A stretch of DNA of 64,000 bases, taken from Spirochaetia bacterium. GTDB taxonomy: Bacteria > Spirochaetota > Spirochaetia > DSM-27196 > Salinispiraceae. This document shows positions 1,435 through 53,471 of this stretch, in pieces. The number at the start of each line of letters is the position of its first letter. The stretch's first letter is position 1. The notes beneath the pieces were generated by a model. It saw only the letters and a program-made list of their open reading frames with translations, ran no database searches and was not told the DNA's origin. Location: positions 96,001 to 160,000 of the forward strand of contig JBBRCZ010000003.1 of the NCBI GenBank assembly GCA_038204425.1, in the 5' to 3' direction. The translations under genes and the position numbers were made by a program.

Positions 1435-2404
1435 AGTCGGTGGCCAGTTTCTCTAGGTCTTCAAAGTCTTCTGGTTCAATAACTTGAAGTTTAAATTCGT
1501 TGGCAATTATCTTGAGTGCTATGGCATCAAGTGCTTTGACAAAGGCAAGATCGCTCTTATGTTTTGACAGTAGTTGACGCTTTATAATCGACTGGCGTAC
1601 TTCGTCTTGCCATGGCAAGAAAGCAATGTATTCAATCGCAATGCCTAAATATCGTGCACAAATCTGTCGAAGTCGCGAGCCTAGTCGTAGTTCGTCAACG
1701 TCTTTGCCCATATTTATGATAACGCGCGGCATAAATGATGCAAAGCGTTCGCGTAGCTTGAGGCCTTTTTTGGGCTCTAGTGCCTGGACTTGGTCCAAAC
1801 AATCGGCCAAGCTTGCAACCTGAGGCGAGTCTTCTCCAGCTTCTCGGCGTGCCGAAAAAAAGTTTCTGACTATCTGGCGTGAATCACCCTTGGCAGGAAG
1901 TGACATCAGCATCAGCCTGTAGAGTGAAGTCTTAATAAAACTGTAGGCGTTTAGGATTGAGGTAGGTTCGGGGCTGGAAACCACAAATCCAAGTTCGGCC
2001 GTTAGCCAAACATCGGTAGTGTTAAAATGGGTGCCCGCGCCAAGGTCCAGAATGATATAGTCGGCCTCCAGTGTGTGCAGTTCCTTGAGCAGCTTTTGCT
2101 TGCGCAAAAAACTCATGTTTGCGGTTCCTGGCATAAGACTGTCGCCGGCCACAAAGAAAAGATGTGCTTGGTCGAGAGCTTGAACTAAAGTCTTAAGTTC
2201 TATTGTTTTATCGTTAAAATAGCTGCCGAGGCCAGGGCTGGTATTTTTGATCCCCAATATGGTATGAGCATTGGAACCACCAAAATCCATGTCAACCAGA
2301 ACGGTGGTCTTGCCATGGCTTGCCAACAAGGAAGCGAGATTTGCGGAAATAACCGACTTACCAACACCACCTTTTCCGCTTGCTAAAGGAATTATAATAG
2401 GCAT
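1412..2404 (-). CDS. MinD/FlhG-like P-loop ATPase
   Basis: Deviant Walker A SGKGGVGKS, plus VDMD, DLGAG and PEPTS motifs. Confidence 0.85.
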   Translation of the reverse strand: MPIIIPLASGKGGVGKSVISANLASLLASHGKTTVLVDMDFGGSNAHTILGIKNTSPGLGSYFNDKTIELKTLVQALDQAHLFFVAGDSLMPGTANMSFLRKQKLLKELHTLEADYIILDLGAGTHFNTTDVWLTAELGFVVSSPEPTSILNAYSFIKTSLYRLMLMSLPAKGDSRQIVRNFFSARREAGEDSPQVASLADCLDQVQALEPKKGLKLRERFASFMPRVIINMGKDVDELRLGSRLRQICARYLGIAIEYIAFLPWQDEVRQSIIKRQLLSKHKSDLAFVKALDAIALKIIANEFKLQVIEPEDFEDLEKLATDFMIEADV

Positions 2405-2564
2405 AATTTTAAGTATAGAAGCAGCTCAGCAGAAAGTGCGAGAAAACATGCGTCAATTGTCAAAGTCTTGGAACGCTGGCTGGCAGTTTCGCTTGAAATG
2501 TCTCGCCCGCTTAGCCTATTATAAGCGGAATTGTTAAAACTATAAGTCGCTACTAGGAGTTGTC

Positions 2565-3050
2565 ATGTCGTTGTGCCCATGTGGATCAGGAAAAGCCTTA
2601 GAACTTTGCTGCCAGCCTTACATTTTGAGTCAAGCCAAGGCACCAAGTGCCGAGGCGCTGATGCGAAGTCGTTATAGTGCATATGTCTTACATGCCATTG
2701 ATTATATATTGGCTACAACAACCACCCATGGTGGCAAAGACGTGGATCCTGCTTCTACTAAGGCCTGGGCTGAGGAATCGACCTGGCTGGGTCTAACCGT
2801 TGTCAGAACAGAAAAAGGTGGTGCCATCGACAACGAAGGCGAAGTTGAGTTTATCGCCCGTTACAAGCAAGATGGCAAAGAAAACAAACACCATGAAGCA
2901 GCCTTCTTTAAAAAGGAAGCTGGGGTCTGGCTTTACGACCATGGCAGTCTGGTTACCGAAACGGTAGTGCGATTAAGTCCAAAACAGGGAAGAAACGATC
3001 CGTGCCAGTGCGGGTCGCTCAAGAAATTCAAACACTGCCATGGCAAGTGA
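2565..3050 (+). CDS. ychJ: YchJ family protein with N- and C-terminal SEC-C motifs
   Basis: CPCGSG...[46 protein letters not shown] upstream. Confidence 0.92.
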
Positions 3051-3062
3051 TAGACTTGGCAG

Positions 3063-3785
3063 ATGAACGTCATGATAGATAATGGTCGGATTCTTGAGCG
3101 AGTAAAAAAACTGCTGGCACTCTCTCAAAGTCCCAATGAAGCCGAGGCTGCTTCCGCGTTGGAAAAGGCACATGAGCTTTTACGAGACTACAACTTAAGC
3201 ATAGAAAACATAACTGTTGATTCGGACTATGCAATCGATGCCTACGAACAAGGCACGAGGCTTCAATCCTGGAGATTGGTGTTATTGTCAGTGCTGTGTG
3301 ATTGTAACTACTGTAAACTTTTGGAATCTCGTGACTATCTCCAGCCAGGTGATGCGGCGGACACACGCACGATCTATACGCTAAAGATTGCTGGCAGGCC
3401 GCACAATATCGATGTCTGCAAAAGCTTGGCAGACTATTTGCTCAAAGCTGTTGAAAGACTTGCCAAGGTTATGGCAAGCGGCAAAGGGAAACAGTACATT
3501 TCCAGCTACAAGATGGGCTTAAGCAGCAATTTGATCGAGCGCCTAAGGCAACTTAAACAAGAGGATAGTCTGCAGGCAACCGGGCATGAGTTGATTGTTA
3601 GAGAGAGCGAAAATGTTGACGCATTTCTGAGTCAAAAATTTGATAGGTTGAGAAATAAGACAACTAGAGCACGAGTCTCGCAAGCAAGTGCTTATGCCCA
3701 AGGCCAAAAAGACGGCCAAAATATTGCTCTCAATGCTCAAGTTCGCAACCAGGCCCGCAGCGATGCGACTAAGGCGCTTAACTAG
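3063..3785 (+). CDS. DUF2786 domain protein
   Basis: N-terminal ILERVKKLLALSQSPNEAEAASALEKAHELL and C-terminal AYAQGQKDG. Confidence 0.8.
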   Translation: MNVMIDNGRILERVKKLLALSQSPNEAEAASALEKAHELLRDYNLSIENITVDSDYAIDAYEQGTRLQSWRLVLLSVLCDCNYCKLLESRDYLQPGDAADTRTIYTLKIAGRPHNIDVCKSLADYLLKAVERLAKVMASGKGKQYISSYKMGLSSNLIERLRQLKQEDSLQATGHELIVRESENVDAFLSQKFDRLRNKTTRARVSQASAYAQGQKDGQNIALNAQVRNQARSDATKALN

Positions 3786-3876
3786 CCAATCATTCTTAAA
3801 GACATAACAGCAAACAGTTTCCTTCTAAGTGTGGTATACTATAGGCACAGCAAGCTTTTGCAAGGAGCCTAAAACA

Positions 3877-4887
3877 GTGGACACCGATGCCTTGCTTTCC
3901 AAAATAATTGCTCTCACCCAAAGAATTTTACTTCCGGCAGGCCAAGAACTTGCATTAATTTTTGAAGAAACCAGTCAAGTGCTTTCCCAAATGGACCCAA
4001 GTATCAGGCCCCTTGCTAGTAATGGCGGACTCGGCGGTCTGATTGAGCTGCATCGGGATCTACCTTGTATTATTGTTCCCGATCTGCACGCTCGAGTTGA
4101 CCTGCTTCCCGCGCTCTTACAAACCGTGCCCCCAAAGCAAAGTTTGACTACACTTGAGCTTCTGAGTTCCAACGCTATCCAAGTCTTGATGTTGGGGGAC
4201 GGTCTGCACAGCGAAGGGGCCGAAGCTGCACTACGGTGGCACAGTGCATGGAACGAGTACCTGATGGATTGGAGCGAGAGCTCTGCCATGGATCAGGAGA
4301 TGACGCTTGCGTTTAACGCTATGGAACAAGTCTCGCTACTCTTAAGAGCCTTTTCTGAACAGTTCTTTTTCTTAAAGGGAAACCACGAAAACATACTTAA
4401 TGAAGAGGGTGGGGGTAACCACCCTTTTGGTAAGTTTGCTGATGAAAGTCGCATGACTTTGACCTGGACAGCACAGTTTTTGGGAGAATCATTTCTTAAG
4501 CACTATAGCGTTTTTGAAAAGTCATTGCCCTTGGTAGCACGAGGCAGGAATTTTCTATCAATCCATGCCGAACCAGCTTTTGCTTTGGCGCCAAGTGATG
4601 CAATAGATGCCTATCTAAACCCACTCTTAATAGAAGCTTTGACCTGGACAGCCAATGGTGGCGCCCAAGCTGATGCTGTAAAGCTAAGCTTGGCTGCCTT
4701 TCTGCCACCAAAAAGCAGACCCGGATTGATTTTTTGTGGGCACCGCGTAGTAGCTGAACGCTTTGCCCTGCGCAGCGCAGGACTTTTGGTTCAGATACAT
4801 GATAAAGAGCGTTTGCAGGCCGCTATAGTCTACCCAGACAAAACCTTTGATCCAAAGACCGCTATCTTTGACTTAGTGGCAAACTAG
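3877..4887 (+). CDS. Calcineurin-like metallophosphoesterase
   Basis: DLH, GDGLH, GNHE, H and GH motifs. GTG start at 3877 follows RBS AAGGAG and a TATACT -10 box. Confidence 0.8.
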   Translation: MDTDALLSKIIALTQRILLPAGQELALIFEETSQVLSQMDPSIRPLASNGGLGGLIELHRDLPCIIVPDLHARVDLLPALLQTVPPKQSLTTLELLSSNAIQVLMLGDGLHSEGAEAALRWHSAWNEYLMDWSESSAMDQEMTLAFNAMEQVSLLLRAFSEQFFFLKGNHENILNEEGGGNHPFGKFADESRMTLTWTAQFLGESFLKHYSVFEKSLPLVARGRNFLSIHAEPAFALAPSDAIDAYLNPLLIEALTWTANGGAQADAVKLSLAAFLPPKSRPGLIFCGHRVVAERFALRSAGLLVQIHDKERLQAAIVYPDKTFDPKTAIFDLVAN

Positions 4888-6317
4888 GCCTTTGGTTTCT
4901 TCTTGCTTTTGACAATCGCCTTGTCATCAAAGACCACAATTGTTCCATTGAAATTTATCACATCTCCTGGACTGAGTTCCTTCTTGCTGACCGTTTTATT
5001 GTTGACCACCACCGTGCTGCTTGAAATCAGAGTATATTTGCCCGTGATAGTGTCGCGGACTATTGTTACAGGGTTCGTTTGCAATTGGGTGTTACCGGCA
5101 ATCGTGAGATCCGCAGTAGTATCTGCTCCAATAATGGTGCGATCGCCTACTTCCAAGAAGCGATTGGTGTTTACAGCACCCGGACCGTAGAGCAGCTGCA
5201 AGTTGGCGCTCGAGCTAGGTTTGTCCAGCTTTACCAAGGCCAAGAGCAACCAAGCCAAGAGAGCAAGTGGCATCAGAAAGTAAATCCAAGGCGGCAAAAG
5301 TGTAAGCGCTTGGCCAAAAACAGTACCAACATAGTAATAACGGGTAGATTCTGCCTGTTGTGCACCGTCGGTAAAACGTAGTTTTACCCATCGTTTGTCC
5401 CCATCAAGCATCAAAGGTCGATAGTCAATTCGAATTTCCTGGACAATACTTTGATGAATGCTGCGATAAATTGCTATTAGTTCGTTGTCGTCCTTAGCAT
5501 CAAATACCGCACCGCCAGACGCGATGGCTATTTCGGACAATTGACTATCTTTGGCATCAGGCCCAAAATTAACGGCAAAGATGGTCCAACCTTGCAAAAT
5601 GGCCTCGTGTAGCGCTTCTTGAGCAGTAAAACTTCGGTTTGCAAACTGAGGGCTGGGCTTATTCTCAAAATCTTTAAATGGATAGTTAACGCCGTCGGAA
5701 AGCACTATCATCGCTTTGCGTCCATTTATGGTCTCACCCTCGGTGCTCGCCATGGTTATGCCCGCATACAGCTCGGTATAACCGTCTTCTCGTGCTGGTC
5801 TAACTATGCTAGATATGGCGGCCGAGACAGTCTGCTTGTCTATCTGCGGGCGTAGCAAGTTTTGGTAGCGAGTATTGAATACCGCAAGCCCTATACTATC
5901 TGTCGGTCCAGTGACCGAAAGCAAAAAATTACTCGCCGCACGGTTGGCTGCAAAAAATCGAGTCTGAGCCAAATCCTCGGTTTTCTTGCCATCGAGTGTG
6001 TCGTACATGCTGCCCGAGTTATCGAGCAAAAACAAGAAGGAAATGCCGGCACTTACGTTGCTGTCGACCGAAATAGTCACATCCCCAGCTGGGATAAACT
6101 GTTTACCGTCGGCCGACTCCAAGATTTCCAGATTGCCTTCTAAAGAATTGGGAACAGAATTTTTGACCAAGCTTTGTATAGTGGCATAGACCGTATTTTT
6201 CTGTTCTGTCAAAAGTAGACTGGGATCAATCTGTGTAATAAAGGCACTTTGGGACGAACCGAGAGCCACCGCCACAAACAAGCAGGCTAGCTTTATGGTA
6301 ATTTTAGATAATTTCAT
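4884..6317 (-). CDS. Exported VWA-domain protein with TM segment and C-terminal FHA-like domain
   Basis: Signal peptide, MIDAS LLDNSGSM..T..LSDG, TM near aa 340-363, C-terminal VVVN...LSPGDVINF. Confidence 0.85.
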   Translation of the reverse strand: MKLSKITIKLACLFVAVALGSSQSAFITQIDPSLLLTEQKNTVYATIQSLVKNSVPNSLEGNLEILESADGKQFIPAGDVTISVDSNVSAGISFLFLLDNSGSMYDTLDGKKTEDLAQTRFFAANRAASNFLLSVTGPTDSIGLAVFNTRYQNLLRPQIDKQTVSAAISSIVRPAREDGYTELYAGITMASTEGETINGRKAMIVLSDGVNYPFKDFENKPSPQFANRSFTAQEALHEAILQGWTIFAVNFGPDAKDSQLSEIAIASGGAVFDAKDDNELIAIYRSIHQSIVQEIRIDYRPLMLDGDKRWVKLRFTDGAQQAESTRYYYVGTVFGQALTLLPPWIYFLMPLALLAWLLLALVKLDKPSSSANLQLLYGPGAVNTNRFLEVGDRTIIGADTTADLTIAGNTQLQTNPVTIVRDTITGKYTLISSSTVVVNNKTVSKKELSPGDVINFNGTIVVFDDKAIVKSKKKPKA

Positions 6318-6328
6318 AGACTTCCTTC

Positions 6329-7216
6329 TCAGCCAAAATATCCGTAAAGGATTTTTGCGCTGCCAATTTGTATGACGTCGTCAAGCTTGAGTTGAATCTT
6401 ATCAATCTTGACTTCATTTACTAATACTGTTCCATCTCGAGCTTGCAGAACGACAGCATCTTTCTTGACCTGCAACTGGGCATGTAGCGCCGCCACGTCG
6501 TCGTAGCCAATCAACACAATGTCTGACCTTGTATGCTGGCCAATCGTAAGCCGACGCTGATTTACTAAGAACTCTTTTCCTTTTTGTTGTCCATTGAGGA
6601 CCTTAAGGCTACCAAGTGAAAATCGCTTTTCTAATATCGAATAGAGTAAACTTATGCTTGCTCCCAAAAGAATTAAAGCTATTAGACGGCCGAAGATAAA
6701 GCCAGGGAAGTGAATAGTGCTGGCAATAAACACCAATCCACCCAAAAGACCTCCAAAAAGGCCCCCGGTGATACCAAGCAAGGTCTTTTTAAACGACATA
6801 GATCGCAGTCCTTCGCTTGCGCCAATTGCCGCGCCCAAAACAGCCCATGCACTGGCTTGAGCCAGAATTAGGCCAATGCTTGCTTTGTCTGAGCCGGCCT
6901 GAGTCAGCTGATCACCGGCGGCAAACAGCAGGCTTTGGGCTAAGAAAGCGCCCAGTATTGCACCAACAGCCCCAGTCAAAAGGCCTGACAACGCTCCCCA
7001 AAGTGCCTTAGAAACAGATCGAGTTAAGACACCTTCTGTTGATCCAAAAAAGGCGCCGAGCACTGAACCAATCACTAGCCCCAAGCTAAGCGTAAACCAA
7101 AAATATGAACCAAAAGCCGATTGCAGGCTCATTAGCGTCTCAATCGCTGGCCATACGAATAGGGCCGATAGAACGCCGATGGTTACCAGCACAAGTCTTC
7201 GTACCAGATAGGTCAT
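6329..7216 (-). CDS. Multi-pass membrane protein with C-terminal FHA-like domain
   Basis: About 6 Gly-rich TM helices, then LKVLNG..GKEF..LTIG..DIVL..HAQL..VNE..DDVIQIG. Confidence 0.85.
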   Translation of the reverse strand: MTYLVRRLVLVTIGVLSALFVWPAIETLMSLQSAFGSYFWFTLSLGLVIGSVLGAFFGSTEGVLTRSVSKALWGALSGLLTGAVGAILGAFLAQSLLFAAGDQLTQAGSDKASIGLILAQASAWAVLGAAIGASEGLRSMSFKKTLLGITGGLFGGLLGGLVFIASTIHFPGFIFGRLIALILLGASISLLYSILEKRFSLGSLKVLNGQQKGKEFLVNQRRLTIGQHTRSDIVLIGYDDVAALHAQLQVKKDAVVLQARDGTVLVNEVKIDKIQLKLDDVIQIGSAKILYGYFG

Positions 7217-9168
7217 GGTATCTCCTTAATGATTGGGTCCGTAGACCCAGGTTTGAATAAAACAGAAACATTGCGTCTGGTATCGGAACGCAGATCCAAA
7301 TTAATATGGGTTTTCTTTGATCCTGTCTGAACTTCTATGCGTAGCGCACCTGGACTCAACGCTAGAAAAAGTGGCTTGTCAGCTTCAAGATTGAGCGCTA
7401 TCAGTTTAGGCGTCTTTTCTCCATTTAGCATGCTGCGGCGACCGTTGATACTGAGGGTCAATCCTTCAATCTTACTTGAGATAACCAAGGCACCCGAACG
7501 AGCCTGCATTGAGATGTTGAGTCGCAGGTCGCTTTGCAGAGGACCAACATCAATCGAGAGTTCTTGTTGGTAATAACCAGGCGAAGCAACTCTAAAGCGG
7601 TAGTTTTTTCCACTTACAAGACGTTCTTTTGGATAGTCTTGCAGATTTTCCCAGATTGCGCTCTCGTTTTTGATCATAATTTGAGCCTGAGCAGTAATGT
7701 CTTGATTAATACGCCTATCAAAAACATTGAACTTGAGTCTCAATGTCTGGGCAACACCGGTTTCTGCAGGATACTTGAGTACCAAACCAGACGAACGACC
7801 CTCGGACTTTTGTACTGAGTGTGGCTGCAGATAAAAGAGCTCTTGGTAGAACTTGTTGTCGATACCAAGCTCCAGAAAGTACCATCCCATCGGCAAAAAT
7901 GTGCGATCTGAGCTAGTTTTTCCTTGCTTGCCCACACCAAAGAAGCTCAAGAGGCTGTTGTAGAAGGATGGCGTTGGCAAATTGGTAGGCGCAGCCAAAC
8001 CAGAAGCCTTGTCAGTATTTGAAGGCGAAAGAACGGGCCTAATTTGTGCACTCAGGAGTGGCGTTGTCAAATCTAGTGGCTGTTGCTCAGAAAGGATTTC
8101 TAGTCGTACGGCACCGTGACTTTCTGCGTAGAACCACTCAAACCACAATCCGCTGTATATTAGGTAGGCAAAAATTGTAGACAAAGCAAAAATAATCAGC
8201 AATTGAGTCGAAACCACGCGCTTTATTGACTTGAGAATGCCCACTTTAGGCGGTTGGTATTTGACATTATTCATCAGTGCGACTAGATGTTTGTCGAGTT
8301 CAGTTGCTTTTTCTTTTTTAAGTCTTTGTTCGAGCAAGTCGATCACCTGTTGCATATCGCGATAGCGTTCTGTTTTTTTGGCGCGTATCATTTTATTGCA
8401 AAGTCTGATGACCGTGGAGTCGAGTCGGGGATTTAGTTTTTTGACTCTAAGATACTTGCCTTTTTTAATTAACAAAAGATTGCTTGGCGACAAATCTCCT
8501 GCAAACGGCTTTTTGCCAGTCACCATTTCGTAGAGCATTACGCCCATAGCGTAGATATCTGCGCTCTTGTCAACGGATTTTGTGTTCTCAAATTGTTCTG
8601 GCGGCATGTAAGAAACGGTGCCCAAGGTCATGCCGTGCGCAGTAAGTCCATCACTTGATGGATCAGAGTTGCTTTCATACCCAGCGATGCCAAAATCGAC
8701 AAGTTTAACTTCTCCTGTTTTGGATATCAGGATATTGGCTGGCTTAATGTCACGATGAATCACACCGCAATCATGCGCGTATTTTAAAGCCTTTGATATT
8801 TCGTAGAAAATTGACAGCGCGAGAAGGCTTGGCAGAGAGCGTTGTTGACGAATAAGTTCGTCGAGCGAAAAACCATCAACATATTCTAGAACAATATAAT
8901 AAGAGGAACCCTCTTTAAAATGGTCATAAAAATTGACGATGTTCTTGTGTCTAAAGTCCATCATAATTTCGGCTTCTCGTTTAAATCGCTCTATAAAGTG
9001 CGGGTTACCACGCACCGAAAGTTTCTTAATTATAACAGAGCGTTTGAGCGTTGGATGCATAGCTTTAAAGACAGACCCCATGCCACCTTTGGCAATCAGA
9101 CCTTCTATGCGGTACTTACCAATAGTTTCGGGCAAAGCTGCCGTAGTGGGGGCCTCTTTAGCGCTCAA
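7213..9168 (-). CDS. Hanks-type Ser/Thr protein kinase, single TM, with PEGA-like extracytoplasmic region
   Basis: GGMGSV, IIKK, RFKREA, HRDIKPAN, DFG, GTVSYMPPEQ and DIYAMG. TM near aa 322-345. Confidence 0.95.
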   Translation of the reverse strand: MSAKEAPTTAALPETIGKYRIEGLIAKGGMGSVFKAMHPTLKRSVIIKKLSVRGNPHFIERFKREAEIMMDFRHKNIVNFYDHFKEGSSYYIVLEYVDGFSLDELIRQQRSLPSLLALSIFYEISKALKYAHDCGVIHRDIKPANILISKTGEVKLVDFGIAGYESNSDPSSDGLTAHGMTLGTVSYMPPEQFENTKSVDKSADIYAMGVMLYEMVTGKKPFAGDLSPSNLLLIKKGKYLRVKKLNPRLDSTVIRLCNKMIRAKKTERYRDMQQVIDLLEQRLKKEKATELDKHLVALMNNVKYQPPKVGILKSIKRVVSTQLLIIFALSTIFAYLIYSGLWFEWFYAESHGAVRLEILSEQQPLDLTTPLLSAQIRPVLSPSNTDKASGLAAPTNLPTPSFYNSLLSFFGVGKQGKTSSDRTFLPMGWYFLELGIDNKFYQELFYLQPHSVQKSEGRSSGLVLKYPAETGVAQTLRLKFNVFDRRINQDITAQAQIMIKNESAIWENLQDYPKERLVSGKNYRFRVASPGYYQQELSIDVGPLQSDLRLNISMQARSGALVISSKIEGLTLSINGRRSMLNGEKTPKLIALNLEADKPLFLALSPGALRIEVQTGSKKTHINLDLRSDTRRNVSVLFKPGSTDPIIKEIP

Positions 9169-9701
9169 CTTGTTTGGTCTCCGACGTTTCTGTTGACCAT
9201 AACAAAGGAGGTACTGATGGTGCTAGTAAGTTCGTTTAAGCGCTCCGTTTCAACTGTTGGAGCGAGTGAGCTGCGAAAACACGCGATTTTTAAAACTGGA
9301 CTGGTCCTGCGGATGGGACCCTGCTTAAAATTGGCAGTAGCATCGGTTTTTAGATCGCTATCCATTACACATTGGTCTCTGCTCTCTTGTTGTGGAACAT
9401 CTTTACGAAGACCAATCGATGCGTAAGCCACTTTTCGGGTGCCGTTTTGGAGCGGACCAACGTTTACAAGGGAACCGGAGTAGGTCATAAGAATAGCACC
9501 GTGTTGATCAGTGGCCTTAAAGCTTTCTACCTCTTCCATTTCGTTTTGAGCTACTGTTTGTTCAAATCTTAGTTTTTTTTCTAACCAAGCTGTAGCCAAT
9601 ACTTCTAGAGATTCATCGCCATCCGCTAGTCCGGAAGTTTGAAAGAGCTGGTTAATGTGTGCCTGAATAAATCCTTCTAGAGAATCAAAGTTTTTCCCCA
9701 T
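9165..9701 (-). CDS. Hypothetical protein, first gene of the kinase operon
   Basis: 178-aa ORF with RBS AAGGAG and a 4-bp overlap with the kinase start. Confidence 0.8.
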   Translation of the reverse strand: MGKNFDSLEGFIQAHINQLFQTSGLADGDESLEVLATAWLEKKLRFEQTVAQNEMEEVESFKATDQHGAILMTYSGSLVNVGPLQNGTRKVAYASIGLRKDVPQQESRDQCVMDSDLKTDATANFKQGPIRRTSPVLKIACFRSSLAPTVETERLNELTSTISTSFVMVNRNVGDQTS

Positions 9702-9859
9702 TTAGTGCTCCTTATCAGTGCTGGGTTTAATGTACTAAAAAAGTACCGCGACGACATTAAAATATTGGTTATTATGGAAATAAATATAATAATAGACTTT
9801 TTGTTTAACAAAATAAAAATTATTCAACTTATTCAACCTATTCTGAGCATGGCTTTAAA

Positions 9860-9893
9860 AATAAAACAGCAAAGTAATTAGCCTTGCTGTTTT
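9860..9893 (-). terminator. Intrinsic terminator after pstS
   Basis: Inverted repeat AAAACAGCAA/TTGCTGTTTT followed by a T-rich tail on the minus strand. Confidence 0.65.
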
Positions 9894-9926
9894 CTTGGGC
9901 ACGGATGCTCTAGAGATTGAGCTCGA

Positions 9927-11069
9927 TTAGTAGCCGTTAGCCTTAATATCAGCAATTACAAGCTGACCGAGAGCTTCGCCTTGGTACTTGAGAGTGGAAA
10001 TCATTCTTTCAGCAATAGCCTGTGCGTCGCTGGGCAAGCGAGCAAAGCTTAGGCCTTCGTTGGTGTTTTGACCCTCAGTTACTATCCAGTACAGGAAGCG
10101 AACCAGTTCTGCTGCTTGATCACGGCTGCCGATTGCTTTGTTCTTCTCAAGGTTTTCGTAGACAAGGATCCAAGAGAAACCGGCAATTGGGTAGCCTTGA
10201 GCCGCTTCAGTATTGGTAACCATAATGCGGCCATCTTCAGGAATAGTTACGGCTGCTGCAAGACTAGTAGACTGAAGTGATGGATCAATGGTGTTACCTG
10301 CGCTGTTGATCACCTTACCATATGCTATTTTGTTGAGCACAGCATAAACAAGGCTATTGTAACCAAGTGCACCAGGTGTGTTCTGAACGATACCAGCCAC
10401 ACCTTCGTTGCCGTTACCGCCATTGCCTACAGGCCAATTGATTGAACTTCCAAAGCCAATCTTGTCGGCCCATGTCTTGTTTACTTTGGTGAGATAGTTG
10501 GCAAAGACATTAGTGGTTCCAGAACCGTCAGAACGATGAGCGATCTTGATTGGAAGACTAGGTAATTTTACTCCGGGATTGAGAGCAGCTATCTTGGCAT
10601 CATCCCAGCGAGTAATCTCACCAAGGAAAGCACCGGCAATAGTGTCTGCATTAAATACTAAGCGCTCTTTCACACTTGGAAGGTTGTAGGTTAAGACAAC
10701 ATCGCCTAAGGTAATTGGCAAGTTATAAGCGATACCAGCGGTGTTGGTTTTGACAAGTTCCATATTTTCGTCGCTCAGGAATGCTTCAGAAGCGCCAAAC
10801 ATAATGGTCTGTTCCATAAACTGACGCACCCCGCCGCCAGAACCAATCGATTGGTAGTTAATGCTAACTGCACCCTTGGAAAGCTCACGATATTCGTCAG
10901 CCCAAGCTGTTACGAGCGGTGCTGGGAAGCTAGCACCTGCGCCCAAAAGTTCGACGCTTGCTCGAGCCATCTTTGCGCCGGCCTTGTTATCAGCCTTGTC
11001 ACCCGCGCCACAAGCGCTCAGTGCTACGGTTACCGCCAGGACAAGCATGCCCCTCAAAATCTTGATCAT
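9927..11069 (-). CDS. pstS: Phosphate ABC transporter substrate-binding lipoprotein PstS
   Basis: GAGASFPAP, YQSIGSGGG, HRSDGSGTT, GNEGVA, YPI and lipobox LSAC. ATG 11069 follows AGGAGG. Confidence 0.95.
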   Translation of the reverse strand: MIKILRGMLVLAVTVALSACGAGDKADNKAGAKMARASVELLGAGASFPAPLVTAWADEYRELSKGAVSINYQSIGSGGGVRQFMEQTIMFGASEAFLSDENMELVKTNTAGIAYNLPITLGDVVLTYNLPSVKERLVFNADTIAGAFLGEITRWDDAKIAALNPGVKLPSLPIKIAHRSDGSGTTNVFANYLTKVNKTWADKIGFGSSINWPVGNGGNGNEGVAGIVQNTPGALGYNSLVYAVLNKIAYGKVINSAGNTIDPSLQSTSLAAAVTIPEDGRIMVTNTEAAQGYPIAGFSWILVYENLEKNKAIGSRDQAAELVRFLYWIVTEGQNTNEGLSFARLPSDAQAIAERMISTLKYQGEALGQLVIADIKANGY

Positions 11070-11119
11070 GATTCCTCCTATTACTCGCTTGAGTTTATTG
11101 AAAGGTAATAAGCAAAAAT

Positions 11120-11153
11120 TAAATTCGGTACGTAATTCAGTTAGAATTCCGTT
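11120..11153 (-). promoter_or_regulatory. Candidate Pho-box-like direct repeats upstream of pstS
   Basis: AATTCGGT, AATTCAGT and AATTCCGT at 11122, 11134 and 11145 (11-12 bp period). Confidence 0.4.
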
Positions 11154-11426
11154 TCTTGCCCGGCAATCTGCCCTAAAAAGCACTATGTGCTGCTTAGGAT
11201 TATCCAGCATATTTTTTTGAGTCCTTACTGTCAGCGGCCAGGGTTCTGGTGAGACGATAATGCGCTAAGAGCGTTTCCAGGTCAGATTCCAGTCTACCCA
11301 AAACTTCAAAGGCGCAACGGGTGGTCCATTTGCTCGTAGACGCCTTCTGTAAATTCGTGAATCTTTGCTTTTGTTACAAAAGCTTAATAACTTGGAGAAT
11401 TGTGCTTTAGCTAGTATTTTTTGAGA

Positions 11427-11774
11427 ATGGAAGAAACCCTCGATAAACGAAGCCTATCCGCCGGTGACGAAGCGTCACGAGTATTGGCACTTAAATTAAA
11501 AGACCGTTCATATTTTATTACCAAATCTTTTACTATCGGACGCTACACAAGAAGTGAAATTCCCTTGCCTAGAGACGTCCTGATATCACGGCGCCATGCG
11601 CGTATTGAATACGAACAAGGCCTCTATCACATTCAGGACCTGCATAGTAAAAATGGAACCTATCTCAACGGCGAGCCATTGGTCGGTGGTCAGAAGTATT
11701 TGTTGTCCTTTGGAGATACCGTTACTATAGGCAAGACGGTGATCACGGTTTCTTCGGCTGGGGTAGTGAGTTAG
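11427..11774 (+). CDS. Stand-alone FHA domain protein
   Basis: Canonical TIGR, ISRRHA, DLHSKNGTYLNG and GDTVTIG. Confidence 0.9.
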   Translation: MEETLDKRSLSAGDEASRVLALKLKDRSYFITKSFTIGRYTRSEIPLPRDVLISRRHARIEYEQGLYHIQDLHSKNGTYLNGEPLVGGQKYLLSFGDTVTIGKTVITVSSAGVVS

Positions 11775-12069
11775 TGAATAAATGGTATTACTCGCACAAG
11801 CCAGCATGATGTGTGAAGCCAATTAGAGTATAGGCAAAGTCTTGGGTTTTGCAGCATAAGTAGTCAGACTTTTTTATTTTAGGCACTTAAATGTGAGCAA
11901 GCTCCCTTTCTTCTCTAGTTTCATATTCACTTTGAATGCCGATTCAAAATTCTACGTAATTTCCAAAGAAAGCGAACAATCTTAGAGGACTATCTATAGT
12001 GATTCGTCGTTTTTTCTTTAGTATTTTCGTAGTTCTTGTGAACTGAATATTTGATTCTTTTGCAAGCCT

Positions 12070-12091
12070 AAAAGCCGTTATTCCAAACGGC
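12070..12091 (-). terminator. Possible intrinsic terminator
   Basis: GCCGTT-TGGAAT-AACGGC followed by TTTT on the minus strand. Confidence 0.4.
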
Positions 12092-12234
12092 CACTTAAAA
12101 AAAATCTCCGCTGATCGTGACCCCCACTGGTTTGCTATCTCAATGGACCAGTCGACCGGAATAGCACGGAAACACGTTGATTTTAAGTACTACCGGGTCA
12201 CTCGGTTGCCCATGCAGGGCTTTTTGTTTTTGAA

Positions 12235-12251
12235 TGGAGGTGGCGGGTATC
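12235..12251 (-). repeat. 17-bp exact duplicate of the tmRNA 3' end (att-like direct repeat)
   Basis: TGGAGGTGGCGGGTATC occurs at 12235-12251 and at 12409-12425. Confidence 0.9.
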
Positions 12252-12372
12252 CCTTTCAGTCGTCGACGTCCTGTCGACTCCTTACAGGCCGGCCCACCTG
12301 ACTGGCGGTGGACTTCCTGTCCGCCTTCCTGGGCTAGGCGCCCAGCGTCAGATGGGCTTCGATACCCGTTGC
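12235..12372 (-). ncRNA. Putative structured ncRNA or tRNA-end-associated repeat element
   Basis: Nested helices CGGGTATC/GATACCCG, GCCCATCTGAC/GTCAGGTGGGC, CTGGGC/GCCCAG, GGAC/GTCC and GTCGAC/GTCGAC. GC-rich relative to its flanks. Confidence 0.55.
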
Positions 12373-12376
12373 AAAT

Positions 12377-12401
12377 AAAAAAACCCTTGCGTTGCAAGGG
12401 C
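12377..12401 (-). terminator. Intrinsic terminator of ssrA
   Basis: CCCTTGC-AAC-GCAAGGG followed by a T run, just after the tmRNA 3' end. Confidence 0.85.
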
Positions 12402-12408
12402 TTAAATT

Positions 12409-12752
12409 TGGAGGTGGCGGGTATCGAACCCGCGTCCTGGTGGGCAGAACGTGAACTTCTACAGGTTTAGTTCATTGTTGTAGTCGGACAGTACGAGCGC
12501 AATGAACAACGCTTTACTATCCCATTCCGGTTAATCTCCCTCATGCAACCCGGACACAGCACTCGGAAAGCCCTGGTTTGTTACAGACCCTAGTTGCCTC
12601 AAGGCGGCGTCAATAAGGGTCCGGCTAAAGCACTTAAGCGGCTAGAGCGTAATCTGCGTTATTATTTGCAGTTATTGTTTTGCCGGTCAGGAGACGACAC
12701 TCCACCTGCAACCCATGCCCATACACGCACCAGTCGAATCCATTACACCCCC
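12409..12752 (-). ncRNA. ssrA: tmRNA, tag peptide ANNNADYALAA (12669-12634)
   Basis: 5' GGGGGUG pairs with 3' CACCUCC-A including the G3:U Ala identity pair. Also GGAUUCGAC, T-arm GCGGGUUCGAUACCCGC, resume context AUAACU-GCA, tag ending LAA*. Length 344 nt. Confidence 0.98.
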
Positions 12753-12766
12753 GTAATGGTAATGCA

Positions 12767-12795
12767 ATACTACTCAATACAGTCTGTTGTGACAA
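12767..12795 (-). promoter_or_regulatory. Sigma70-type promoter of ssrA
   Basis: TTGTCA-17 bp-TAGTAT, ending 14 nt upstream of the mature 5' end. Confidence 0.65.
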
Positions 12796-12824
12796 GTACA
12801 ATCTTTGTGGACAAGGACCAAGGG

Positions 12825-13634
12825 TTAAACCTTAAGAAAAGGCAAAACTAACGGTAGCAGAGTCTTGTTGCATGCCAGTGCCGAAATACCAAGTTGCCTC
12901 TCGCCCTCCATGTCGACAAAGGCAGCTCCAGCTTCTTCAAAGATTGGTTTGAGCGCGGCTATATCCCACAAATGCATGGCCGGATCAAGCATGATGTCAG
13001 CTCGGCCAGCAAGCAACATCAGATAACCGTAGCCGTCACCCCAGCTGCGCGACAGAGCGACTTGTTTCAAAAGCTCAACCGTTTTAGGTCTTTGCTGTAT
13101 CAGATGACTGGGATCAGTGCACAAAAGCCATGCTTTTGAAAGGCTGTCACAATCACGCAGTTTGGCGGGAGCATTGTTGTAAAAGGCACCCAAGCCCCTG
13201 GCTCCCCATGCCGTCTGATTGAGAATTGGTTGGTGAATTATGCCCAAGACTGGCCGTCCATCGTGCATCAAGGAAAGCAAAAACGTGTAGAGTGGCAAGG
13301 CGGAAATAAAACTTTTGGTTCCATCGATCGGGTCAATAGTCCAGGTCCAAGGGCTGGCTGCGGTTTTGTTGCCCCATTCTTCACCAATAATGCCATGCGT
13401 CGGGTAACGTTGCTCAATAATGCTGCGGCACAAACTCTCAGTCTCGCGGTCGGCTACGGTAACAGGACTTTGATCGTCCTTTAGCTCTACGGCAAAAATC
13501 CCGTCAAACCACGGTTTGGTGTTATCGCCGGCTTTTTTGGCCAAATCGAGCGCAAAATCAAGGTATGGCTGCAATTCTTGAGGGCTGGGTAGTGGGCTGG
13601 TACCTGCAAGTGGGGGCTTAGCGATTGTTGCCAT
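12825..13634 (-). CDS. Inositol monophosphatase family protein, probable histidinol-phosphate phosphatase (HisN-like)
   Basis: SPVTVADRETE, GEE, DPIDGTKSF, WGDGYGY and WDIAAL. Confidence 0.8.
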   Translation of the reverse strand: MATIAKPPLAGTSPLPSPQELQPYLDFALDLAKKAGDNTKPWFDGIFAVELKDDQSPVTVADRETESLCRSIIEQRYPTHGIIGEEWGNKTAASPWTWTIDPIDGTKSFISALPLYTFLLSLMHDGRPVLGIIHQPILNQTAWGARGLGAFYNNAPAKLRDCDSLSKAWLLCTDPSHLIQQRPKTVELLKQVALSRSWGDGYGYLMLLAGRADIMLDPAMHLWDIAALKPIFEEAGAAFVDMEGERQLGISALACNKTLLPLVLPFLKV

Positions 13635-13653
13635 ATCTTACTCCTAGTGACGT

Positions 13654-14136
13654 TTAATGTTCAAATCTGTCTCGACTTTGGCGAGCTGCTTCGCGGTCTA
13701 AGTCACGGCTCTTAATGTCGTCGCGCTTGTCGTAAGTCTTTTTGCCCTTACACAAGCCAACTTCAATTTTGATCAAGCCACCCTTGGTATAAATTTTGAG
13801 CGGAACCAAGGTGTAGCCTTTTTCGTCAACTTTGCGGCGCAGCTTTTCTATTTCTGCCCGGTGAGCCAAGAGTCTGCGGGAGCGCGTTGGTTCGTGGTTA
13901 AAAAGATTGCTCTGGGGCCACGTGTTTATCTGCAAGGATTTGAGAAACAAAGAGCCATTGCGGGCCTCTATCCAAGCATCAGAAAAGCTAAAGTGATGTG
14001 CTTTTAGGGACTTAACTTCACTGCCCATCAAGCTGATGCCGCACTCCAACGTATCGTCGACGTGGAAATTGTGATATGCTTTTTTGTTGCTGCCGAGGAT
14101 CGCATTGGTCTTTCGACCGCCTTCTTGGGTAGCCAT
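13654..14136 (-). CDS. smpB: SsrA-binding protein SmpB
   Basis: NKKAYHNF, GISLMGSEVKSL, RRLLAHRAEI, KGKKTYDKR. Confidence 0.97.
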   Translation of the reverse strand: MATQEGGRKTNAILGSNKKAYHNFHVDDTLECGISLMGSEVKSLKAHHFSFSDAWIEARNGSLFLKSLQINTWPQSNLFNHEPTRSRRLLAHRAEIEKLRRKVDEKGYTLVPLKIYTKGGLIKIEVGLCKGKKTYDKRDDIKSRDLDREAARQSRDRFEH

Positions 14137-50714: not shown

Positions 50715-53471
50715 TTATACGGTCAATTGGGTTGTAGTCTTGATCTTTGTCAAATCTGCCTTAACAATTGACTTTATTGAGTATTGATAGGTTCTCTCAT
50801 TAATAACAAACTTAAGTTTTTCGCCTGGTCCTTTTCGGTAGATCTCAGCACCAAAAGGAGAAAGGTAACTAATTACGCCCTCATCTGGGTTTGATTCCCA
50901 TGGACCCATAATCGTATAAGTTTCTTCGGTCTTGGTATCTTCGTTGATTAAGAGCACCTTGGTTCCAAAACCAACCCTGCTTGCGTCAACTTCTTCGATG
51001 TTAAAGGCCTTGGCGTGGTCGAGTTCGTTCTTCCACTTAGCAGCTGTAGCATTAAGAATTTCTTGGCGCTCTTTGGCAGCTTTGTACTCTGCGTTTTCCT
51101 TAAGGTCGCCAAAATCGCGAGCGATAGAAATCTCCTTGGAATTCTTCGCAACTTCGACTTCCTGCAAGTTTTGAAGTGCACGACTTTTTTCTTCATAAGA
51201 GTGGTAAAGCGCAAAGAATGTGCTGCGGTTCGAAGTCTCAATTTCTCGATCTTTGTCGTTCTCACCCTTAAACTTGAAGTCCGGAAATCGCTTTTTGATC
51301 AGAGTCTTAGCTTGGCGAGAAAACTCATGCTCAACTCCCCGTGACTCTTCCATTAAGTTGTAGACTCGTCCAATACCGTCTTTGTCAGCACTGCCTAAGT
51401 AATCTATGAGCATGTTTTCCTTAAACAGAATTGTAGAAGCCTGGCGGTTGAGTCGACGGTTTTCGCTCAGATCTTTCTTGTTTTCCAGTTCACGCGCCGT
51501 GATGTCTAGTAAGTGAATTAGTGCTATCAAAATCTTGTCGGACGGAATGTTGAGTTCTTTAAACCATTCTTCTTCCCGACAGTTCTTGAGAAACCAAACG
51601 GCGACCTCACGATTGTCTCTATAAGCAGTAAAAGCATTGGTGAACAATTCTTGAACCTTATCGGTATAGCCTGCTTTTATCAAATCATTGATATTGTCTT
51701 TGTGAAGTTGCAGTGGAAGCAAGCGCAGATAAATTGGAGGCCAGTTTTTAGTATGTTTTCGAATTATGCCGAGAAATTCTCTGCGTAACTCTGCATTATT
51801 TAGTCTAAGGAATACTGCTTCGGTGTCAGGTCCCAACGCTTCAATGGCTTCTCTAAAGTTAAGATTGACTCCAGGATTGAGGAAGTTAAAGTGCTCAATG
51901 ACTGATCTGACAACCAACATCGAACCCAAAGTAAACTCGTTGACCTGACTCATGTTTCGAACGTAGGCAACAAAGTAGCCAAACATTTCCCTGAACAAAT
52001 CTGACTCCACTGATGATTGTTGATCTTGATCCTGAACAAAGCCCAGAAATTCTTGCAGAATCTTGATTCTATTGAAAAACTCTTTTTCTGCCTTAAATCG
52101 ATTAAAGAACTTTTCTTCCAAACTAATCGGCTGCTCACGAACCATATATACATCTGGTTTGTCTGGCATGTTGCCAAAGGATTCGTCTGTTTTGAGCAAC
52201 TGACGAGCTTTGCTGCTCCAAGAGGTCCATTCGTTTGGTTCTAAGAGTTTAGAATCAGCAAGTTCGAGTTTTACCCGTTTCATGTCAGCTTGGTTATCAA
52301 AACTCTTGATTATGGTCTTTAGAGCCCAGATTGGATCCTTAAGAACTTTCTTTTTTAGTTCATCTTTCTTTTGAGTTGTGCGACAAACCCAAATGTGATC
52401 TTTGCCCAAAATTGTCAGCGCACTGACTGCCAACTTAAGTGACATCTTGTGACCCTTGGTTTTAATAAAGTCGATGGTAATAAAATCATCTTTGATTTCC
52501 ATTATTCGACCTACACCCCATGTTCTATGGTGGACGTAGTTGCCAGCATCAAATGAAATGTGCTTTTCAAAGTCAGCAATAGCATCGTGAACACTTCTCC
52601 AAGAAGCACCGATGTTGGACATGCGCAAGCATTCTTCAAGTTGACTATGATTTTGATGCTTGTTTCGATAGCAAATAACCAGTTCGTTGCGGGCAGTTGG
52701 ACTCTTAGGGTCGTAGTTTACAATTTTCTTGAGGATATCAAGCGCTATGTCCCATTTTTCAGCTGCCTTATAGGCAGGATAAAGGTCTTCGAGCAATTGT
52801 ACGGCCCGGTCTTCTCCCAAGACCTTGGATGCCTTGCCCTCAGCATGAAAAAAGAACTCTACTTCTTCGCTGGCTAAGTCGATTAGTTTTTTCCAGATTT
52901 CGCGAACCTGGCTAAACATCTTGCGATTGATGTAGCGGTGAAGGGCTTTCTTGTAGAATTGGATCGCTTCTTCTGTCTTGCCAAGACCCTCGGCACGTTC
53001 TGCCAACAATTTAACGATATCTGCTTCTTCGTAGTCAACACGAATCAGTTTTTCCCAGACTTCGTATTTTTTGGTTTCATTAGATTCTGCTTCATAGCAC
53101 TTGGCAAGCGTGCGGTAGGCGTGTTTATTTTCGCCAAAGCCAAGAATTCTTTCAGCCAATGATTCTACTATCTTCCAACGATTGTTCTCAATAAAAATAT
53201 TGATCAGAATTAGCAAATTGGCGTCGTTGATAGACTGTTTGGTTAAGTTAATGATGCCTGAAATATAGAGGGCTATGATGCTGTTTTTGCTGAGCTGCAT
53301 GTGTTCTTCACACAGAGCCAAAATTTCTTCTTGACATTTCTGTTCGAAAACTTCTTCCAGAAGCTCGTCCAATTCCTTGAAAACTTGGGTAGTGTAGTTT
53401 CCAATTGTAGCCCTGGTCCACTTCTCCTGATGGAGTTGTTCGGTGATCATGGAGATAAGCTGTTCAGACAT
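50715..53471 (-). CDS. greA: Transcription elongation factor GreA with long N-terminal TPR-like extension
   Basis: C-terminal EI..AR.FGDLKENAEY.AAK, GFGT, ISYLSPFG. About 750 aa of helical N-terminus. Confidence 0.92.
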   Translation of the reverse strand: MSEQLISMITEQLHQEKWTRATIGNYTTQVFKELDELLEEVFEQKCQEEILALCEEHMQLSKNSIIALYISGIINLTKQSINDANLLILINIFIENNRWKIVESLAERILGFGENKHAYRTLAKCYEAESNETKKYEVWEKLIRVDYEEADIVKLLAERAEGLGKTEEAIQFYKKALHRYINRKMFSQVREIWKKLIDLASEEVEFFFHAEGKASKVLGEDRAVQLLEDLYPAYKAAEKWDIALDILKKIVNYDPKSPTARNELVICYRNKHQNHSQLEECLRMSNIGASWRSVHDAIADFEKHISFDAGNYVHHRTWGVGRIMEIKDDFITIDFIKTKGHKMSLKLAVSALTILGKDHIWVCRTTQKKDELKKKVLKDPIWALKTIIKSFDNQADMKRVKLELADSKLLEPNEWTSWSSKARQLLKTDESFGNMPDKPDVYMVREQPISLEEKFFNRFKAEKEFFNRIKILQEFLGFVQDQDQQSSVESDLFREMFGYFVAYVRNMSQVNEFTLGSMLVVRSVIEHFNFLNPGVNLNFREAIEALGPDTEAVFLRLNNAELRREFLGIIRKHTKNWPPIYLRLLPLQLHKDNINDLIKAGYTDKVQELFTNAFTAYRDNREVAVWFLKNCREEEWFKELNIPSDKILIALIHLLDITARELENKKDLSENRRLNRQASTILFKENMLIDYLGSADKDGIGRVYNLMEESRGVEHEFSRQAKTLIKKRFPDFKFKGENDKDREIETSNRSTFFALYHSYEEKSRALQNLQEVEVAKNSKEISIARDFGDLKENAEYKAAKERQEILNATAAKWKNELDHAKAFNIEEVDASRVGFGTKVLLINEDTKTEETYTIMGPWESNPDEGVISYLSPFGAEIYRKGPGEKLKFVINERTYQYSIKSIVKADLTKIKTTTQLTV

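Follow-up and report, generated by a model that had tools for sequence, protein, structure and literature searches.

What is the structured DNA directly behind the tmRNA gene of this spirochaete, and what does it mean that its last nucleotides repeat the 3' end of that very gene? In the 64,000-nt stretch analyzed here (the window), ssrA was located on the minus strand at 12409..12752 by employing ARAGORN and Rfam (RF00023, 156.2 bits), downstream of smpB and of a gene of the inositol-phosphatase family. The gene has a promoter-like site at 12767-12795, specifies the tag ANNNADYALAA and lacks an encoded CCA. The original prediction of an exact second copy of the final 17 nt of tmRNA, 174 nt downstream, was borne out: tmRNA positions 57-73 (12409-12425) were found again at 12235..12251 (minus strand), with 157 nt separating the two repeats. 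These were the only two matches to the 17-mer in the window, even with 3 mismatches allowed, a setting at which 0.07 were expected by chance and 1 of 100 shuffles gave 2. The tmRNA 3' region, comprising the T-loop, the 3' strand of the T-stem, the 3' acceptor strand and the discriminator (12409..12428, minus strand), was the source not only of this direct copy but also of an inverted copy, complementary to 12418-12428.

As also anticipated, the ssrA terminator lies between the two copies. A terminator scan placed an intrinsic-terminator-like hairpin (10 bp, stem 12381-12403) with a T tract at 12371..12403 on the minus strand; this hairpin forms the first part of the repeat unit, and the tandem units of relatives open in the same way. 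The 3' end of ssrA is a hot spot for integration, and one explanation, named beforehand as that which would undo the prediction, is a decayed att remnant, i.e., two att copies that remained when an ssrA-integrated island lost the DNA between them, the stretch itself being without function. That the 3' end of ssrA is repeated directly at a distance of only 174 nt is in line with such an origin. Neither an integrase or recombinase nor island cargo was detected among the neighbouring genes between or beside the repeats, in agreement with the earlier statement that no integrase is adjacent; the neighbours encode SmpB, an inositol-phosphatase-family protein (Inositol_P), and FHA and PBP-like proteins.

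The adjoining region of the window (4884-11774) was seen to hold a cluster of genes of signalling type, encoding VWA, FHA/YscD-like, Ser/Thr protein kinase and PBP-like proteins as well as a small FHA protein on the opposite strand, and an A-tract with a hairpin at ~12200-12230 resembles the terminator of the convergent FHA gene. Elsewhere in the window (50715-53471, minus strand), a GreA fusion protein of ~906-918 aa was identified by a full-length match to NF011309 (E 6.8e-292), a long form that is presumably typical of spirochaetes. In agreement with it, PNPase assigned the organism to uncultured Spirochaetales/Spirochaetaceae, the best identity being 70%.

Beginning 38 nt past tmRNA and on the same strand, a folded module was delimited at 12235..12370 (minus strand), where it matched R2, our full-length family covariance model, at model positions 1-133 with 80.2 bits (E 7.9e-18). 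Near-complete folding of this GC-rich stretch had been predicted, and the 138 nt at 12235-12372 on the minus strand folded at -71.3 kcal/mol (z = -6.3; none of 200 shuffles reached this value); the same stretch on the plus strand gave z = -3.4. The helices that had been named were all present where they had been placed, together with the three hairpins and the tail. Firstly, an arm of inverted sequence, CGGGUAUCGAA (12358..12368, minus strand), corresponds to an inverted copy of tmRNA positions ~54-64 and is, as foreseen, the exact reverse complement of the tmRNA T-arm UUCGAUACCCG. The first 8 nt of this anti-T arm constitute the 5' strand of the closing helix P1 (CGGGUAUC/GAUACCCG, 12361-12368 with 12244-12251), in which 8 bp are followed by a free tail of 9 nt. 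The direct copy at 12235..12251 supplies both the 3' strand of P1, GAUACCCG, and the free 3' tail, CCACCUCCA, and P1 equals the duplex of tmRNA positions 57-64.

Inside P1, the P2 domain (12292..12357, minus strand) comprises an 11-bp outer helix around two hairpins (12329-12345 and 12304-12325). The outer helix (GCCCAUCUGAC/GUCAGGUGGGC, 12347-12357 with 12292-12302) contains one U-G pair and is continuous on the minus strand only, being broken on the plus strand, exactly as had been claimed. The 12304-12325 hairpin (minus strand) exposes CAGGAAG in its loop region. The P3 domain (12252..12291, minus strand) is an irregular helix composed of CCU/AGG, AG/CU, tandem G-A and GUCGAC/GUCGAC with a C-AGGAC-G cap loop (CAGGACG in the loop of the 12262-12278 hairpin, minus strand); it matched R1, a covariance model of the 3' domain built from 5 sequences, with 82.5 bits, showed covariation and is the most conserved part of the family.

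The search for homologues behind tRNA genes, which the original prediction had proposed, returned many. A BLAST search of the unit against its own genome retrieved one further copy, a partial one that immediately follows tRNA-Leu(GAG) and its terminator; the 5' arm of this copy is complementary to the T-arm of tRNA-Leu and not to that of tmRNA, and the P2 of the window is 76% identical to this half-module. Starting from weak matches in relatives, full units were located behind tRNA-Arg, tRNA-Leu and tmRNA genes. Employing R1, matches with E<=0.01 were obtained in 53 of the 99 genomes belonging to this spirochaete order, one complete genome containing as many as 23; across the phylum, R1 matched 12 of 151 genomes, the own genome counted. 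Tandem arrays of up to 6 units, with a spacing of ~175-230 nt, were frequent in the genomes of the order.

A total of 88 model matches at 51 loci gave 76 units once duplicated places and fragments had been removed, and in 66 of these 76 a tRNA or tmRNA gene was located directly upstream, on the same strand and within the locus examined. The ten units with no such gene were mostly situated at or near contig ends, and one of them followed a tmRNA missed by ARAGORN and found by Rfam. The upstream neighbours were tmRNA and tRNA-Leu (GAG, TAA, CAA, CAG), tRNA-Arg (TCT, GCG), tRNA-Pro (CGG, GGG), tRNA-Met (CAT), tRNA-Gly (CCC) and tRNA-Asn (GTT). Each unit consists of a terminator-like hairpin, an inverted copy of the T-arm of its neighbour, a core of ~110 nt and a direct copy of positions 56/57-73. 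Of the 66 units, 58 close with a direct repeat of 12 nt or more from the 3' end of their own neighbour, beginning at T-loop position 56/57. An inverted copy of 9 nt or more from positions ~52-68 of the same neighbour was found in 63 of the 66, at a median of 54 nt into the unit. In the units of relatives, the arm was specific to each neighbour, with a median inverted match of 12 nt to the cognate tRNA vs. 6 nt to non-cognate ones. Leaders folding at -8 kcal/mol or better preceded 60 of 63 units and were, by eye, mostly terminators with T tracts; this hairpin count alone was used, and a heuristic based on T runs undercounted terminators because A tracts pair with U tracts.

In the own genome, 4 of the 42 tRNA and tmRNA genes (tmRNA, tRNA-Leu GAG, tRNA-Gly TCC and tRNA-Pro GGG) carry an inverted T-arm copy of 11-17 nt at 38-47 nt downstream, while the other 38 genes showed 8 nt or fewer. 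Two contigs end inside modules, namely those behind tRNA-Gly(TCC) (L077, G000:C7:1-160) and tRNA-Pro(GGG) (L078, G000:C23:1-200). The module repeats apparently break the assembly of this genome, as expected for collapsed repeats. When the similarity of units was compared by category (same genome vs. same tRNA type), the difference was small (0.73 vs. 0.68), and the identity measure was inflated, with a baseline of 0.66-0.68. Some units (L056, L058, L067 and L052, with leaders of 89-168 nt) additionally contain a hairpin element of ~45 nt, placed between the 3' copy of one unit and the next terminator. For the tmRNA-linked unit L031 (G087:C365), a run of N (masked or withheld bases) lies inside the terminator hairpin of the leader, and the length of 285 nt is not meaningful.

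The structure was then assessed across the family. When 39 distinct modules were aligned with plain MAFFT, the whole stretch between the arms was alignable across tRNA types and genomes. Six helices were written down from this alignment and scored on it: 82.8% of the cells were paired, compared to 60.4% in shuffled alignments and at most 42% in slid controls, the latter being a lenient comparison because the structure was derived from the same sequences. We counted 303 double-change cells vs. 103 in shuffles, with changes on both sides in every helix, and RNAalifold recovered P1, P2b and P3 unaided. For P3, a model-fitted alignment of 68 distinct domains gave 95.2% paired cells, with slid controls reaching at most 49%, and 174 double-change cells vs. 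44 in shuffles. Further, G-U pairs exceeded A-C pairs in P3 (20 vs. 3), which favours the tmRNA-sense strand as the folding strand. Several features are fixed, i.e., the tandem G-A pairs beside stems, the GGAGGCGG junction and the two C-AGGAN-G hairpin loops; GGA occurs in 37 of 39 P2b loops and in 24 of 39 P3 loops, the other 15 P3 loops having CGA. Thus, covariation, which had been put forward as a check on the fold, was strong and extended to all six helices.

These data bear directly on the decayed att remnant. A family present in many relatives, together with strong covariation, is not what a mere remnant would leave: the interior between the repeats belongs to a family found in 53 of 99 genomes, with six covarying helices. 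Likewise, in a close relative represented by metagenome contigs, tmRNA differs at 18 of 353 positions (5%) from that of the window, but P3 and the 3' copy (12235-12292) are identical at 58 of 58 nt. An inverted T-arm copy at the standard distance of the family is also unexpected in a random remnant. We therefore regard this origin, which the original prediction had set as its refutation, as extremely improbable.

The same relative shows how units change. The 5' half of its unit is replaced by 125 other letters, and at least two units with a period of 174 nt precede the end of the contig, in comparison with the single unit of the window. Hence, copy number varies between close relatives, and units show mosaic evolution of their parts.

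The known element that most resembles the module had already been named as an analogue, and the comparison held. RtT repeats are 178-bp units of the E. coli tyrT-tyrV operon, reportedly the subject of earlier work by Egan and Landy, Rossi, Boesl and Kersten, and Rudd, and four RtT (RF00391) copies were located in the E. coli tyrT-tyrV region. Like the module, RtT is situated immediately 3' of a tRNA gene and in its orientation, has a branched interior and repeats the tRNA 3' end at the close of each unit; it can be tandem, as are many units of relatives. In the Rfam consensus of RtT, an inverted T-arm copy (GgGaaGGAU) pairs with the tRNA-Tyr 3' copy (AUCCuuCcC) and leaves a free tail, ccaCCACCA, which is the arrangement of P1 here. 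The two differ in that a terminator hairpin precedes nearly every spirochaete unit, whereas none lies between tyrT and RtT, and in that the direct copy of the spirochaetes lacks CCA, as do their genes, whereas the RtT tail includes it. In addition, RtT is hosted by enterobacteria rather than spirochaetes, and the spirochaete family, unlike RtT, is also found behind tmRNA.

Homology between the cores of the module and of E. coli RtT was considered and was unsupported by the model scores: on the RtT copies, R1 reached at most 3.8 bits and R2 5.1-9.8 bits (E 0.34-6), neither of them significant. We thus claim a shared design and not homology. Conversely, the Rfam scan of the module returned no described family, with RF00391 giving no gathering match in the window, and no match at E<=5 appeared in six module loci. 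Our literature search, which was not a full-text search, yielded no description of modules of such kind outside E. coli. What is new here is the tmRNA association and the detailed consensus, the design itself being already known from RtT. The original prediction of either a mini-element or a processed sRNA with a tRNA-like end gains in one respect, as the stretch belongs to a conserved module behind tRNA genes, and loses in another, the stretch being less novel than assumed given that RtT is a described element of the same design. The mode of action of RtT is stated to be unknown in a passage of a bioRxiv preprint (10.1101/2024.07.17.603846).

Taking the sequence comparisons together, we consider it fairly probable that the stretch behind ssrA is one copy of a conserved, folded module of ~135 nt which follows tRNA and tmRNA genes, has the design of RtT and is likely transcribed as RNA; the family itself, its linkage to stable-RNA genes, its arms, its fold and its variation in copy number are matters of observation. 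According to this reading, RNA polymerase would read through the ssrA terminator from the strong stable-RNA promoter and transcribe the module, P1 would clamp the ends of the module RNA, and the single-stranded, tRNA-like 3' tail left over would be where the tRNA 3'-end machinery trims the RNA. Trimming of this kind has been reported for rtT. The conserved purine-rich loops, including the two C-AGGAN-G loops, may bind a protein. Units would be gained and lost via unequal recombination between the 17-18-nt tRNA-end repeats, and short tracts of templated conversion from the tRNA gene, combined with selection on P1, may keep the anti-T arm in agreement with the local tRNA.

Some observations speak against the module being an RNA. 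Firstly, a strong terminator lies between tmRNA and the module, and nearly all units of relatives are similarly preceded; with this terminator upstream and no promoter-like site found between tmRNA and the module in the scan of the window locus, expression would depend on read-through. The sequencing runs retrieved for the locus were all metagenomes; the RNA runs among them cover the universal tmRNA T-arm only, and the remaining RNA runs contain 0.04 of the sampled words. Secondly, the anti arm includes the complement of T54-T55(-G53), which P1 does not need and which points to copying at the DNA level. Thirdly, gene islets are present inside or beside the module at two loci.

The latter observations would fit the main rival, a non-autonomous integrative DNA element derived, without cargo, from the islands that target tRNA 3' ends. 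Here, the unit would run from the copy of tRNA positions 56-73 through the terminator to the module, and the folded strand, or the inverted and direct copies together, would rebuild the target duplex for a recombinase acting in trans, and arrays would arise from repeated integration. A unit bounded by direct repeats of the tRNA end that brings its own terminator is compatible with this, as are the occurrence of the same core behind at least 12 tRNA species and tmRNA, with arms specific to each, the difference in copy number between close relatives, and the complement of T54-T55 in the anti arm, as a copy of the target would have. The att repeats of islands that integrate into tRNA and tmRNA genes with a tyrosine integrase resemble the module in that they are direct repeats of the 3' end of a stable-RNA gene, with the inserted DNA supplying the sequence right after the gene, and islets are found at two module loci. 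Unlike such islands, however, the module has 157 nt between its repeats, no integrase, a conserved and covarying interior and an inverted copy of the target.

The two loci with islets also count on the side of integration. In the own genome, an islet carrying a truncated Phage_integrase comes after the half-module of tRNA-Leu(GAG), and in G006, 11.4 kb of DNA with an ABC exporter set and an rve transposase lie between a tRNA-Leu fragment and a module. As evidence for a mobile element, both loci are anecdotal, given that islands tend to accumulate at tRNA genes in any case. At the own-genome locus (L076, G000:C1:572400-576638), tRNA-Leu(GAG) at C1:572544-572629 is followed by the left half of the module only (terminator, anti arm and P2), and then by an AT-rich islet encoding a HARE-HTH protein, a UDG-superfamily protein and a 157-aa Phage_integrase fragment. 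No distal copy of the tRNA-Leu(GAG) end with <=2 mismatches was found in the own genome, where the contig ends ~4 kb past the gene.

At the G006 locus (L169, G006:C1:3598000-3617999), two tRNA-Leu 3' fragments and three module copies were observed at ~2135-13770; one of these copies ends in a different tRNA-like 3' end, and an insert similar to the ~45-nt hairpin described above interrupts a tRNA-Leu fragment. The 11.4 kb, with 43% GC, carries genes for a C39-peptidase ABC exporter, HlyD and OEP proteins and the rve transposase, and is flanked on one side by a tRNA-Leu fragment with its terminator and on the other by a module whose own 3' end is this tRNA-Leu end. The 40 kb examined contained no intact tRNA-Leu gene. 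An insertion into the T-loop was considered as its origin and rejected, as R2 aligned a degenerate anti arm there; the locus is a deletion derivative.

Several findings weigh against integration. Most units by far have no linked recombinase, and the module of the window has none in its vicinity; covarying stems with fixed loops are more in keeping with an RNA or a structured ligand site than with protein-binding sites in duplex DNA; the same tRNA types are occupied across families, suggesting long vertical retention; and integration alone does not explain how the inverted arm comes to match a new target. On balance, we hold an integrative element to be rather unlikely, and retain the transcribed module as the preferred reading.

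How the arms follow their partners is informative with regard to a further alternative, an antisense regulator of the neighbouring stable RNA. In this view, base pairing between the anti-T arm and the T-arm of tmRNA or tRNA, in trans or within the read-through precursor, would control folding, 3' maturation or decay, and the 3' copy would compete internally and mask the arm. The arm is able to pair with either partner, and its complementarity to the T-arm extends beyond P1, covering T54-T55 and often G52-G53. In G006, moreover, the 3' copy has drifted, yet the arm matches the current tmRNA. The opposite was observed in G023 and G087, where the T-stem of tmRNA is now GUGGG/CCCAC and the module retains the GCGGG arm and the CCCGC copy; both remained unchanged despite the change in tmRNA, indicating that the arms stay matched to each other and that the arm follows its internal partner, not the changed T-stem. 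Further, a folded tRNA T-arm is a poor target for an antisense RNA, and the conserved P2/P3 core would be left unexplained. We consider an antisense role very unlikely.

As to a possible ligand of such a module RNA, its loops resemble those of CsrA-titrating RNAs of the CsrB/RsmZ type in displaying CAGGA(N)G, the CsrB repeat motif; there are two such loops per module, and they are multiplied by arrays. No Csr/Rsm family model matched the window, and one unit of G031 gave a weak rsmX match of 26.2 bits (E 0.2), the gathering score being 56. A csrA gene is present in the own genome (G000:C3:15761-15919), as it is in 93 of the 99 genomes of the order, with or without modules and with no correlation; this near-universal presence is therefore uninformative on a role as sponge. 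Unlike Csr/Rsm RNAs, 15 of the 39 P3 loops of the family have CGA and not GGA. Judging from the loop motifs, a CsrA-sponge role of the module may be pursued as a lead only.

Finally, the closing helix recalls the folded single-strand attP elements of the CTX-phage/IMEX type. In the CTX phage, the single strand folds to form a dif-like site; in such elements, as in the module, an inverted copy of the target folds on a direct copy to give an image of the target duplex. No gene for a module-linked recombinase acting on single strands was found. RtT-type modules might be self-tailoring hitch-hikers of stable-RNA genes that an enzyme acting in trans inserts, multiplies and re-templates behind any tRNA or tmRNA gene, sometimes with cargo. 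The folded strand would then rebuild the duplex of the neighbour's T-arm/acceptor region for a recombinase or repair enzyme acting in trans, and the cargo would sit between the terminator and the module. We consider this distinctly unlikely; if it were true, it would define a previously unrecognised class of mobile DNA that targets tRNA ends, from enterobacteria to spirochaetes.

In practical terms, arrays of the module break assemblies and can be mistaken for integration scars. The rtT element of E. coli has for decades been an unexplained curiosity of one operon, and the same design is now found in a distant phylum, where the spirochaete family, with its well-defined consensus, its two covariance models, its variation in copy number and complete genomes with up to 23 matches, offers material on which its function may be tested.
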